Shown in pieces: positions 40,766 through 47,645 of a stretch of 64,000 bases of DNA. The stretch comes from Escherichia coli (lineage in GTDB: Bacteria > Pseudomonadota > Gammaproteobacteria > Enterobacterales > Enterobacteriaceae). Each line of letters opens with the position of its first letter. The stretch's first letter is position 1. The stretch is taken from assembly GCF_024502345.1 (NCBI RefSeq), contig NZ_JALDNN010000001.1. The stretch is one strand, 5' to 3'. Below the pieces are notes generated by a model. It searched no databases and had not been told where the DNA came from. It saw nothing but the letters and a program-made list of their open reading frames with translations. The translations under genes were made by a program, and so were the position numbers.

Positions 40766-43111
40766 ATGTCATCAACTAATTTCAGTCAGATCGCAGCCTT
40801 CCTGTGGTCTGTCGCCGACCTGTTACGCGGCGATTTTAAACAATCCCAATATGGGCGAATTATTCTCCCTTTCACTCTTCTTCGTCGTCTGGAATGCGTA
40901 CTCGAAACAACGAAAGACGCGGTCATTGCCGAGGCGCAAAAAGTAAAAGCCATGAAACTGCCGGAGGAAGCCCAGGAGAAAATGATCCTGCGGGCGACTA
41001 ATGGCCTCACGTTCTTTAATGCCTCAGCAATGGATCTCAGCAAAATGGGGCAAAATGGCATACAGGACAACCTGGAAAACTACATCCAGTCGTTCTCTTC
41101 GGATGCCCGCGAAATTTTCGAACACTTCAAGTTCAGCGAGTTTGTCGGACAGCTGGCGGATGCGAACTTACTGTTCAAAGTGGTGCAAATATTCGCTAAA
41201 GCAGATTTATACCCGGAGCACGTCACCAACCACGATATGGGGCTGGTATTTGAGGAGCTGATCCGACGTTTTGCCGAGAGTTCTAACGAAACCGCGGGGG
41301 AGCACTTTACCCCGCGTGATATCGTCAATCTGACCACCTCGCTGGTGTTTTTCGATGATGATGACGCGCTCAATAAAGACGGCATCATCCGCACCATTTA
41401 CGATCCAACGGCAGGAACCGGCGGCTTTCTCTCCTCCGGCATGGAGTTCGTCCACAAACAAAACCCCAATGCCGTGATGCGCGCGTTTGGTCAGGAGTTA
41501 AACCCGGAATCCTACGCCATCTGTAAAGCCGACATGCTGATTAAGGGCCAGGACGTCAGCCTTATCAAACTCGGCAACACCCTGTCCAACGATCAGCTCC
41601 CCGCAGAAAAATTCGATTACATGCTTTCTAATCCACCTTTCGGCGTGGACTGGAAAAAGATAGAAACCGACATCATCAACGAGCACAAACTCAAAGGTGC
41701 CGATGGTCGATTTGGCCCCGGCCTGCCCCGCGTCTCCGACGGTTCGTTGCTGTTTCTGCTTCACCTGATCAGCAAAATGCGCGATGCCAAAAGCGGTGGC
41801 GGGCGGATCGGCATCATTCTTAATGGTTCGCCGTTATTCACCGGCGGTGCAGGAAGCGGTGAAAGCGAGATCCGCCGCTACATTCTGGAAGCGGATTTGC
41901 TGGAAGGCATTATCGCCCTGCCCACCGACATGTTTTACAACACCGGTATCGCTACCTATGTGTGGATTTTGTCGAATAAAAAAGCGCCAGAACGCAAAGG
42001 CAAAGTCCAGCTTATTGACGGCAGCAACCTGTGCGGCAAGATGCGTAAATCGCTGGGGTCAAAACGCAATATTCTCGGAGACGAGGATATTGGTTTAATC
42101 ACCCGCACGTTTGGCGATTTCGAACCCGTTGCCACCACCACGCTTGCGGCGTTAGGCCTGGAGAAAGCACCTGAACAAAAATCCAGCCGGGGACGCCAGC
42201 CCGCAACAACCAAAACCGAGGCGGCAAAAACCTTTGCCAGCAAAGTCTTTCACAGCACCGAGTTTGGCTATCGTCGCATCACCGTTGAGCGCCCGTTACG
42301 CCTGTCGGCTCAGATCACCGATGACGCCATTGCCACATTACGCTTTGCGCCGAAGCCGTTTAACGCGCCGATGGCACAACTGTATGACGCCTTTGCTTTC
42401 CAGTGGCAGGACGGTAATTACGGCGACTTAACAGCGCTAGAAAGTGAAGCCCGCGCCATTCTTAAAGCCGATTTTAGCGAGCTGAAAGAGAAGCAAATTA
42501 AAGATCTGCTCGACAGCAAATTATGGCTGGCCCAGCGCGGATTAATGGAAAAAGCGCGGCGTATTCAGGCGGCGATGGGTATGCAGGCGGGCGGCAAAGA
42601 CACCGTTAGCAATAACTTTAATCTGTTCCAGTTGACGCTGAAAGAGGCGTTCAAAACCGCAGGCGTGAAGCTGGATGCGAAAGAGAACAAGCAGTTTATC
42701 GATGCCATCACCCGCAAAAACCCGGATGCCGAGCCGGTAATCAGCAAGGTACTGAAAGAGGCGGCCCAACCGCTGTATGGCGCGTGTGAGTACAACGGAA
42801 AGGTTGTGGAGTTTGAACCGGATGGCGACCTGCGCGATAACGAGAATGTACCGTTAAATCCGTCTGTATCTACCAGCGAGTTGATCGAGGGTTACTTCAA
42901 AGCAGAAGTGTTGCCGCACGTTGCGGATGCGTGGATTAACGCCGATAAGCGCGATGCGAAAGATGGGGATATCGGGATTGTGGGGTATGAAATTCCGTTT
43001 AATCGTCATTTTTATGTTTATCAGCCGCCAAGGCCGCTGGAGGAGATTGATGCGGATCTGGATGCGGTAAGCGCTGAGATTATGAAACTGTTGCAGGAGG
43101 TACATTCCTGA
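40766..43111 (+). CDS. hsdM: Type I restriction-modification methyltransferase subunit (long form, ~780 aa)
   Basis: N-terminal HsdM_N-like region, AdoMet motif [10 protein letters not shown], catalytic NPPF (LSNPPFG), plus about 300 aa of C-terminal extension. ATG at 40766 with aagga SD 9 nt upstream. Confidence 0.8.
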
Positions 43112-44385
43112 TGGCAGGGTTAAATAAATATCAGGCGTATCCGGAGTATAGGGATTCTGGGGTGGAGTGGTTGGGGGAGATTCCTGCTCATTGGGAAACG
43201 TTACAGCATAAATACGTCGCATATTATACTAAGGGCAAAAATCCTTCTTTTTTGCTCGATACCCCAACAAAGAACACCCTACCTTATCTTTCTATGGATT
43301 GTTTAAGAAATAACTCCATAGATAAATATGCTATAGTATCTAATGATATTCGTATTGCATTAGAGGGACAACCACTTATTATTTGGGATGGTTCTAATGC
43401 TGGGGAATTTGTCAAAGGCCGAAAAGGTATTTTATCCTCAACGATGGCCTCTGCAACGCTTAATTATCCTTTGCACATGCAATATTACTGGTATTTATGC
43501 ACTGCAATTGAATCTGAAATGCGTAAACATGCAAATGGTATGGGTATCCCTCATGTAAATGGAGAAGAATTAAAGAACATTCATCTAAGTATCCCTTCAA
43601 TAACCGAACAAAAAAGCATCGCTGGTTTTCTTGAATTTGAAACAACGAAAATTTCGAACCTTATAGAAAAACAACAACAACTAATTGAATTACTAAAAGA
43701 AAAACGTCAGGTCGTGATTAGCCATGCGGTCACAAAAGGGCTAAATCCTGACGTGCCGATGAAAGATTCTGGGGTTAAGTGGTTGGGGGAAGTTCCAAAA
43801 CACTGGCACATATGCAAGTTAAAATGGTTTGCTAATTTGAAAAGTGGTGATTTTATAACCAGCAATTCAATAGAACCAGAAGGAAACTATCCTGTATATG
43901 GTGGAAATGGATTAAGAGGATATTATTCTTATTTTACACACAATGGTGAATATGTTCTTATTGGTAGACAAGGTGCTCTTTGCGGAAATATAAATTACGC
44001 AATTGGAAAGTTTTGGGCTTCAGAACATGCTGTTGTTGTCACCCCAAACGAAAGAGCTGTTACAATATGGTTAGGAGAATTATTAAGAATAATGAACTTA
44101 AACCAATATTCAGTTTCTGCTGCACAACCGGGGCTTGCGGTTGAAAGAATTACTGATTTATATATTCCAATCCCACCATATCAAGAGCAAATAAATATCG
44201 GAACTTATATATCTAAATATATTTCTCTAGATAAAAAATTGATTGAGCATAGTACAGATAATATTGAACTCCTCAAAGAACGCCGCACCGCCCTTATCTC
44301 CGCCGCCGTCACCGGCAAAATTGATCTACGCAACTGGACCGCGCCCATCCCCGAAGCGGAAACACCCACGGAGGCCAGCGCATGA
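43111..44385 (+). CDS. hsdS: Type I restriction-modification specificity subunit
   Basis: 424-aa ORF with internal duplication (RDSGVEWLGEIPAHWE / KDSGVKWLGEVPKHWH; LIELLKEKRQVVIS / NIELLKERRTALIS) and two AT-rich target-recognition domains; start overlaps the hsdM stop. Confidence 0.85.
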   Translation: MAGLNKYQAYPEYRDSGVEWLGEIPAHWETLQHKYVAYYTKGKNPSFLLDTPTKNTLPYLSMDCLRNNSIDKYAIVSNDIRIALEGQPLIIWDGSNAGEFVKGRKGILSSTMASATLNYPLHMQYYWYLCTAIESEMRKHANGMGIPHVNGEELKNIHLSIPSITEQKSIAGFLEFETTKISNLIEKQQQLIELLKEKRQVVISHAVTKGLNPDVPMKDSGVKWLGEVPKHWHICKLKWFANLKSGDFITSNSIEPEGNYPVYGGNGLRGYYSYFTHNGEYVLIGRQGALCGNINYAIGKFWASEHAVVVTPNERAVTIWLGELLRIMNLNQYSVSAAQPGLAVERITDLYIPIPPYQEQINIGTYISKYISLDKKLIEHSTDNIELLKERRTALISAAVTGKIDLRNWTAPIPEAETPTEASA

Positions 44386-47300: not shown

Positions 47301-47645
47301 GCAAAAGCGAAAGATAAAAAAGAGGAGTTTTTATCTCAGGTGCTTTCTCGGATGAATGAATTATTCATTAGTGACCATTTGACCGACAAAGATATGATCA
47401 GCAATGCTTTTTCGGTGTATAACAAAATAACTGAAAATGAAAATGTTATGACACAAATTAAAAACAATCCCCCAGAACAAGCGATTCTTGGTGATTTCCT
47501 CCAGGCAGTTGATAATGCTGTAATGGACAGTAATGACGCTCGGCAAGAATTCATGTTGCAATATTTATCCGATCCAGCTCGGGCAAAGGGCTTTGCTTAT
47601 CTGATGTTTGATATGCTAACGGGGAAAATTGCTTTGCCAACATAA
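44382..47645 (+). CDS. hsdR: Type I restriction endonuclease subunit (SF2 helicase/nuclease)
   Basis: 1087-aa ORF with helicase motif I SAGSGKSNS and motif II IADEAHSSQ; ATGA overlap with hsdS. Confidence 0.85.
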   Translation: MSHDITKEVNLQNDIIAQMVEKGWIVGKGDGYDRERALYAQDTLNFVQTTQTQEWEKFARVYPNDPERHFLDALVAQLKKADSNATDIQSRTWGTLGVLRHGLKIRNARFSLCQFKPEHNLNPETLARYQQNICRIVPELVYSPYASNSVFAETGVKAKKWRIDLVLFINGLPIATLELKSEFKQAVQNAIAQYKKTRLPKDPATNKPEPLLAFKRGALVHFAVSQYDVFMTTKLAGDSTFFLPFNKGTKEGGAGNEIPEDTRRYATDYLWNEVLLPDNLLKILASFVHLQIEEKEEWNGLKAKKESLIFPRYHQWDVVNKLLEAATVEDTGHKYLIQHSAGSGKSNSIAWTAHQLSRLYDANGEKQFHSVIVVTDRTVLDDQLQDTIWQFEHADGVVGRINNREGDGSKSEKLANALENSQPIIIVTIQTFPFVLKAIENSVSLKQRKYAVIADEAHSSQSGSTARQLKEVLMSEEMDDDVVLSSEDILDATIAARKGSSNLNYYAFTATPKSKTLELFGRRPRPDEPASKTNKPEAFHVYSMRQAIEEGFILDVLKNYTNYKVAYQLLQKLEDEDREVDSKRAKVKLNQWVTLHDHNISQKVKVIVEHFRKHVMHLLGGQAKAMVVTSSRKAAVRYKLAFDKYISENNYQKISAMVAFSGEVEFREGDPNSLALLNQKFTEINMNPGLKGRDMRKAFDSDDYQVMLVANKFQTGFDQPKLCAMYVDKALGGVECVQTLSRLNRTYPGKAESGTFVLDFYNDPDEILGAFQPYFQTAELTDVSDPQQVFDLFEKLRATQIFQWHEVEQFCEAYFIKNKSNAAISNICKPAVERWKKRYLMAIDAYLTAKEMFERTKKTGDTVLITNAENSFKACKQEKDRLEIFKKDLGSFVRFYEFMSQIVEYDDKDLEKLSLFARHLRPLLHEQRLEDDEIDLSNVEMSHYRLSKIHEQDLRLQEETPDYTLDASNNIGTAKAKDKKEEFLSQVLSRMNELFISDHLTDKDMISNAFSVYNKITENENVMTQIKNNPPEQAILGDFLQAVDNAVMDSNDARQEFMLQYLSDPARAKGFAYLMFDMLTGKIALPT

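Follow-up and report, generated by a model that had tools for sequence, protein, structure and literature searches.

In E. coli K-12, the immigration control region (ICR) is the location of the hsdRMS, mrr and mcrBC genes (PMC3874165). The type IA restriction-modification (R-M) system of this region, EcoKI, follows the three-subunit plan of HsdR, HsdM and HsdS, with its genes in the order R-M-S and an HsdM of 529 aa. In EC958, the ICR slot is held by the type ID system EcoMII, which has the order M-S-R, an HsdM of 539 aa and an HsdR of 1087 aa; the latter is 92% identical to the HsdR of StySBLI (PMC4659465). The type IC system EcoR124I, represented by the complexes 7BST and 7BTO, is plasmid-borne and has an HsdM of 520 aa.

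Here, we examined a 64,000-nt stretch of E. coli DNA (contig NZ_JALDNN010000001.1 of assembly GCF_024502345.1; hereafter, the window) in which an hsdM-hsdS-hsdR operon with an HsdM of 781 aa is found at the ICR, a variable defence locus of E. coli. Based on our analysis, this operon very probably encodes an intact, ordinary type I R-M system that belongs to a widespread long-HsdM family and is carried as an alternative ICR cassette. We regard the system as intact because the hsd frames are full length and contain all the catalytic, nuclease and motor motifs. The original prediction, made from the letters of the window, had proposed a type I operon in M-S-R order at the position of EcoKI and had described its HsdM as unusually long.

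The hsdMSR operon and its three subunits

In the six-frame list of open reading frames (ORFs), hsdM, hsdS and hsdR follow each other on the + strand (Table 1). The hsdM ORF can be read as 784 aa from position 40757 or as 781 aa from the ATG at 40766. This second ATG is the likely start, because the sequence AAGGA is located 9 nt upstream, an identical 781-aa protein has been recorded, and the coding sequence (CDS) annotated by PGAP in the near-identical cassette of NZ_CP104123.1 is 2346 nt long (781 codons plus the stop). The hsdM/hsdS junction, TGATG, is a 1-nt overlap with AGGAGG upstream, while the hsdS/hsdR junction, ATGA, is a 4-nt overlap with GGAGG upstream. These stop/start overlaps, each with a Shine-Dalgarno sequence upstream, indicate that hsdM, hsdS and hsdR are translationally coupled in the order M-S-R. 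The reading frames, the domains described below and the junction sequences bear out the original prediction of an M-S-R type I operon with overlapping stop and start codons.

Three separate, co-encoded subunits, which is what a type I system requires, were recognized using Pfam, NCBIfam and PADLOC. HsdM belongs to the gamma class of N6-adenine methyltransferases and has the S-adenosylmethionine-binding motif and the NPPF/Y catalytic motif of type I enzymes; DPTAGTGGF is located at residues 213-221 and motif IV, NPPF, at residues 289-292. The PADLOC MTase_I profile PDLC03029 (profile positions 2-660 of 661) spans HsdM residues 2-780 with an E value of 8.4e-280. In HsdS, we identified two Pfam Methylase_S stretches and a match to the PADLOC Specificity_I profile PDLC03105 (E 6e-108). 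The GC content of hsdS is low, about 0.38-0.40. When HsdS was compared with its counterpart in strain GF60, the first target recognition domain (TRD1) was unrelated, while TRD2 and all the conserved regions were identical. Such a TRD1 swap with a constant TRD2 corresponds to the classical mode of specificity change within type I families.

HsdR has the expected N-terminal PD-(D/E)xK nuclease followed by a superfamily 2 (SF2) DEAD/H-box motor, with Pfam matches to HSDR_N, to ResIII/SWI2_SNF2/DEAD and to a T1R_D3-like domain. The nuclease motif is represented by D164 and ELK at 178-180, and the motor motifs by GSGKS (342-346), DEAH (455-458) and QTGFD (714-718). The match to TIGR00348 scored 181 bits, under its cut-off of 284.55 bits, and the best PADLOC REase_I match was moderate (E 1e-35). 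No family match was obtained in the Pfam and NCBIfam scans for the C-terminal ~300 aa of HsdR.

By analogy with described type I enzymes, we propose that the three subunits would be translated from one M-S-R transcript through the coupled stop/start codons, and that an M2S1 complex would methylate adenines at the N6 position of a bipartite target, which the two TRDs of HsdS would determine. Joining of HsdR to form R2M2S1 would then produce an endonuclease that translocates in an ATP-driven manner and cleaves DNA lacking the modification.

The long HsdM and its C-terminal extension

HsdM is 252 aa longer than the HsdM of EcoKI. Its aligned catalytic core is followed by 330 residues; in EcoKI, this number is 122, and in the type ID HsdM it is 100. 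Considering the net excess over EcoKI of about 250 aa, the C-terminal share is about 210-230 aa; the original prediction of about 300 extra C-terminal residues was therefore right as to where the excess lies and modestly overestimated its size. The values given there for EcoKI itself, the order R-M-S and an HsdM of 529 aa, were correct.

Nevertheless, this length is unusual only against EcoKI and is the norm for a very large and widespread family. Proteins identical to HsdM, HsdS and HsdR have been recorded on 80, 75 and 14 contigs, respectively, and the HsdM cluster has 527 members. A 7.4-kb segment of the cassette is present in 116 of 5,426 complete E. coli genomes, in 114 of them with at least 80% of the segment, and always as a single chromosomal copy. 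Among at least 8,000 HsdM homologues, the best 120 are all at least 81% identical to this HsdM, and all but one have 767-797 aa; the exception is a 1021-aa protein that also bears a Methylase_S domain. These 120 proteins come from Salmonella, Citrobacter, Klebsiella, Serratia, Yersinia, Pantoea, Xenorhabdus, Vibrio and other genera. The profile PDLC03029 covers the protein end to end, and PADLOC contains further long MTase_I profiles of 810-932 positions. The description of this HsdM as unusually long consequently holds only in comparison with EcoKI.

We also searched HsdM residues 456-781 alone against 1.84 billion representative sequences (clusters at 50% identity). The extension matched 2,413 clusters at E ≤0.001 and 1,021 at E ≤1e-10. 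A Pfam scan of ten of these matches detected N6_Mtase in all ten and HsdM_N in nine, the tenth being truncated at its N-terminus; the complete proteins among them have 654-799 aa, apart from two variants of about 1,140 aa. The extension is accordingly a feature of the whole family and not an addition found in this strain alone. The original prediction was to fall if the extension proved to be a standard domain of a described type I family, and in substance this is the case. In two of the proteins matched, P0123 (1148 aa) and P0135 (1130 aa), the match to the extension ends at about residue 724, without the terminal helix, and is followed by ~420 more C-terminal residues with no Pfam match there; those of P0123 are unlike the HsdS described here. 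In these two proteins, the HsdM C-terminus is thus elaborated further.

The Citrobacter, Klebsiella and Yersinia relatives of the operon have the M-S-R order and the same overlaps of 1 nt (M/S) and 4 nt (S/R). The Citrobacter relative is also located in the ICR, with brnTA; in Klebsiella, mcrBC-like genes follow; the Yersinia relative is on a mobile island, and a helicase-PLD gene follows. Each of the three genera thus has a different gene downstream of the operon, and no further partner gene conserved among them was found. The M-S-R order is kept in every relative whose contig reaches far enough, and the overlap lengths differ in distant members. The HsdR subunit is 36-40% identical over its full length to the HsdRs of distant long-HsdM systems. 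Based on the shared order and the shared HsdR subfamily, the long HsdM, this HsdR subfamily and the M-S-R order travel together. One distant member (locus L005, 11766-13409) has a 547-aa SLFN_AlbA_2/HATPase_c_4 gene between hsdS and hsdR, which is an example of a cargo gene embedded in a type I operon.

No Pfam match was obtained for HsdM residues 456-781, in agreement with the earlier statement that the function of the extension is not readable from the sequence, and our literature search on a C-terminal extension of HsdM returned nothing relevant. The AlphaFold2 model of residues 456-781, built from 150 aligned sequences, has a predicted local distance difference test (pLDDT) score of 90.3 and a predicted template modelling (pTM) score of 0.78. 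For full-length HsdM, these values are 89.2 and 0.82, and within the extension only residues 471-482 fall under a pLDDT of 50. The model divides the extension into a linker, a middle module and a tail (Table 1). In the model of the C-terminal part, the first ~35 residues, which correspond to the linker, have low pLDDT. The middle module would consist of beta strands with an FGY..ERPLR motif (489-515) and a bundle of approximately seven helices (519-648), followed by a small beta sheet and a helix at 649-715; residues 489-675 gave no Pfam, PDB sequence or fold match. In the tail, a conserved motif (GYEIxFNRxFY..PPR, 740-757) precedes an amphipathic helix (758-780); the tail is the signature of the family. 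Both this motif and FGY..ERPLR are present in the family consensus.

Comparison with distant family members showed that conservation is distributed unevenly along the chain. The methyltransferase core (151-455) is 45-64% identical over about 290-305 aligned residues and the tail (676-781) 42-63% identical over 89-100, while the middle module (496-675) is only 23-35% identical over 100-180; in the lineage-specific linker (456-495), only 8-15 residues could be aligned. The tail is also found in HsdMs of 644-684 aa.

The C-terminal helical region of canonical HsdM lies alongside the conserved helices of HsdS (PMC3510504). Canonical HsdMs end in a strand, followed by an aromatic/RY motif and then by an amphipathic helix; in the type ID HsdM, for example, the sequence ...KVATLQDIKDNDYVLTPGRYVG... 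continues as a helix. The long-family HsdM has like C-terminal elements, split by the inserted helical module. Because canonical-like elements recur and the tail is conserved like the core, we tentatively read the tail as an HsdS-binding element: by analogy, the conserved tail and its terminal helix might replace the short canonical C-terminal region and bundle with the HsdS helices, although we give this slightly less than an even chance. In that case, the variable helical module would stick out from the complex and offer an additional surface, perhaps one for the divergent HsdR of the family.

Several points weigh against these proposals. Neither BLAST nor phmmer aligned the tail with canonical HsdM C-termini, and the role given to the extension is drawn from analogy and conservation. 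The extension is acidic overall (net -10), which disfavours a role as a DNA clamp and indicates no partner. In the material searched, we found no activity, methylation-motif or expression data for the cassette. Finally, the adjoining GmrSD-like gene is frameshifted, which indicates some decay of the cassette, though the hsd genes are intact.

It is unlikely, in our view, that the ~290-residue folded extension is a new fold that gives the enzyme a property absent from classical type I enzymes. If it were, HsdR docking or regulation could differ, or an exposed module could alter the sensitivity to the DNA mimics Ocr and ArdA, and the system would represent a mechanistically distinct type I branch, possibly an unnamed family beyond IA-IE. 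To our knowledge, type I assembly has been modelled mechanistically only on enzymes with a short HsdM (EcoKI and EcoR124I). The extension is of interest because, in a very common HsdM architecture, ~290 residues that are predicted with confidence to be folded have neither a Pfam model nor a solved relative. The locus itself is of little import: the cassette has been annotated, recurs in about 2% of complete E. coli genomes and behaves like other allelic type I families of the ICR.

We considered four other explanations of the locus. That the 781-aa HsdM is an artefact, in which a frameshift or mis-assembly fused hsdM to downstream or foreign sequence, has in its favour the bare 252-aa excess over EcoKI HsdM only, and its probability is negligible given the identical proteins on 80 contigs within a 527-member cluster, the CDS of equal size in another complete genome, the homologues of 780-790 aa in many genera, a chain that folds confidently as one unit, and a tail as strongly conserved as the catalytic core. 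A frameshift, which the original prediction had named as what could undermine it, is thus excluded. There is also a very slim chance that the extension is a once-separate accessory protein, still its own subunit elsewhere, which would make this a four-component system. Matches of ~300-330 aa that begin at the start of the extension (P0125, P0139, P0149, P0150 and P0168) point in this direction, as do three metagenome contigs on which a stand-alone extension ORF directly follows an ORF for the methyltransferase core. These three stand-alone ORFs were inspected and all were rejected as artefacts, one being a scaffold gap with N letters at the junction and two being frameshifts at which another reading frame runs on without a break. 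Moreover, core and extension are in one chain in every full-length match, and no non-HsdM protein was present among the matches examined.

Equally improbable is that the operon encodes a non-type-I defence system assembled from type I-like parts, such as MADS, a BREX-like system or type ISP/IIG. Matches to NCBIfam MADS2 and MADS5 (54.5 and 16 bits) and to PADLOC mad2 and mad5 are consistent with this, as are the modest HsdR scores against REase_I and TIGR00348. Nevertheless, the MADS cut-offs of 720 and 400 bits are far above these scores, and the best PADLOC matches are by a wide margin MTase_I and Specificity_I. Exactly three genes with canonical domains are present, with no additional partner conserved across genera, and TRD swapping in HsdS is typical of type I. 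A decaying system, in which methylation may persist and restriction has been lost in this strain, is somewhat less remote and still improbable. The neighbourhood favours it: the GmrSD-like gene has a frameshift here and is broken in two in GF60, and the cassette holds an orphan BrnA gene and a Fic-like gene whose motif is degenerate. Opposed to this are the full-length hsdM, hsdS and hsdR frames with intact catalytic motifs and the identity of the three proteins to sequences on many contigs, and an intact type I R-M system is the reading that we retain.

Chromosomal context and transcription signals

The cassette is flanked by yjiA, which ends at position 37130, and by yjiS (48500-48664, - strand) and yjiR (48841-50253). 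Within it, the gene order is orphan brnA, the Fic-like gene, the GmrSD-like gene, hsdMSR and an AT-rich ORF for a 237-aa membrane protein (Table 1). NZ_CP104123.1 and strain GF60 have this island as well.

Table 1. Features of the ICR cassette (positions are those of the window; aa positions are those of the respective protein)
Feature	Position	Strand	Characteristics
Orphan BrnA antitoxin gene	37164-37466	-	adjoins the Fic-like gene
Fic-like gene	37605-38339	-	244 aa; Pfam Fic 19.8 bits, cut-off 24 bits
GmrSD-like type IV restriction gene	38565-40481, continuing to about 38382	-	DUF262 + DUF1524
Divergent intergenic region	40482-40765	.	AT-rich; between the GmrSD-like gene (- strand) and hsdM
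hsdM	40766-43111	+	781 aa; gamma-class N6-adenine DNA methyltransferase subunit, long-form family
HsdM_N domain, aa 9-143	40790-41194	+	Pfam PF12161, E 3.5e-27
N6_Mtase catalytic domain, aa 155-455	41228-42130	+	Pfam PF02384, E 1.2e-57
HsdM linker, aa 456-488	42131-42229	+	basic, low-complexity, lineage-specific; predicted largely disordered
HsdM middle module, aa 489-675	42230-42790	+	AlphaFold2 secondary structure, pLDDT >90; most variable part of the protein
HsdM conserved C-terminal tail, aa 676-781	42791-43108	+	small beta sheet, PPRP motif, terminal amphipathic helix
hsdS	43111-44385	+	424 aa; specificity subunit, two TRDs and conserved N-terminal, central and C-terminal regions
HsdS TRD1, about aa 28-165	43192-43605	+	unrelated in strain GF60
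HsdS TRD2, about aa 229-350	43795-44160	+	
hsdR	44382-47645	+	1087 aa; restriction/translocase subunit
Multi-pass membrane ORF	47711-48424	+	237 aa; GC about 0.30; 65 nt after hsdR
Hairpin, 16-bp stem	48427-48464	.	between the 237-aa ORF and convergent yjiS; pattern match only

EC958 and Citrobacter have a BrnT toxin gene at this position, which is missing here. In the Fic-like protein, the motif is degenerate (FFFDGNKRTSR), with Phe in place of the catalytic His. The GmrSD-like protein, which has 699 aa in NZ_CP104123.1, has 638 aa here, its last ~65 residues being lost through a 1-nt frameshift near codon 634, and the GF60 copy is in two pieces. This gene seems to be decaying repeatedly in the cassette.

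The 237-aa ORF downstream of hsdR reached the threshold of no family in Pfam, NCBIfam or PADLOC; in two other E. coli cassettes, it carries the annotation "hypothetical". As other genes replace it in Citrobacter, Klebsiella and Yersinia, it is not a conserved R-M partner.

The operon promoter is presumably located in the AT-rich region between the divergent GmrSD-like gene and hsdM, a position that is inferred only. A consensus promoter scan found no site in this region and, overall, fewer promoter-like sites than in shuffled sequences. The same region (40660-40690) has two TGATCA palindromes ~13 nt apart, both with a Dam GATC site, which might act as an operator or as a promoter element sensitive to methylation. 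At the other end, the hairpin between the 237-aa ORF and yjiS is, from its pattern, probably a bidirectional terminator at the end of the transcription unit. In the stretch from hsdR to the 237-aa ORF, the consensus scan detected no terminator-like site, and the Rfam search of positions 37000-49000 found no RNA family.

Comparison with the described type I families

Identity between the HsdMs of different type I families has been reported as 25-33%, and as over 90% within a family in the type IB example (PMC2481252). Compared with type IA EcoKI, the HsdM described here is 27% identical over 320 aa and the HsdR 23% over 411 aa. The type I system of CFT073 has been called type IB (PMC8287963), and its HsdM and HsdR are 99% identical to those of the IB enzyme EcoAO83I (PMC2481252). 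Against this system, HsdM is 26% identical over 286 aa and HsdR could be aligned in an 81-aa patch only; the subunits of the CFT073 system have 489, 589 and 810 aa, compared with 781, 424 and 1087 aa here. With type ID EcoMII, HsdM is 28% identical (core only), HsdR 24% and HsdS about 23% in patches. For type IC, comparison with the PDB chains of EcoR124 gave an E value of 3.8e-26 for HsdM, restricted to the core, and of 4e-11 for HsdR, over ~65 residues.

High identity in both HsdM and HsdR, by which a type I family is recognized, was therefore found with none of IA, IB, IC and ID. Because the HsdM and HsdR identities are at the inter-family level, the system is placed outside IA, IB and ID, and its match to IC is weak. 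The alignment to family representatives proposed with the original prediction has thus excluded three families and given a weak match only for the fourth. The flanking yjiA and yjiS/yjiR genes, together with the low HsdM and HsdR identities to EcoKI, confirm that the operon occupies the EcoKI slot and belongs to another family. On the other hand, the M-S-R order, which had been thought to distinguish the operon, does not, since the type ID system of this locus in E. coli shares it.

EcoMII shares with the present system the ICR slot, the M-S-R order, the HsdR of 1087 aa and the subunit and domain plan; it differs in its HsdM, which is without the extension. The same ICR locus and the three-subunit plan are shared with EcoKI. 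A length beyond the classical 490-540 aa is likewise found in the HsdM of Vibrio vulnificus (PDB 7EEW, 638 aa). The identity of 36-40% among the HsdRs of long-HsdM systems contrasts with the 23-24% observed with the IA and ID HsdRs.

The names in the 527-member HsdM cluster include neither KpnBI nor any REBASE name. Klebsiella has 786-aa (2361-bp) members of the present long-HsdM family with 82% identity. KpnBI of Klebsiella pneumoniae, the prototype of type IE, is reported to have a long hsdM and a one-base hsdM/hsdS overlap (Chin et al. 2004). Its hsdM is reportedly 2631 bp long (876 aa), a length that would not fit the present family, although this figure may transpose the digits of 2361 bp. 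On these features of KpnBI, to which the comparison is limited, type IE is a candidate family for the hsdMSR operon of the window, and the cassette that carries it is an already catalogued kind of system.

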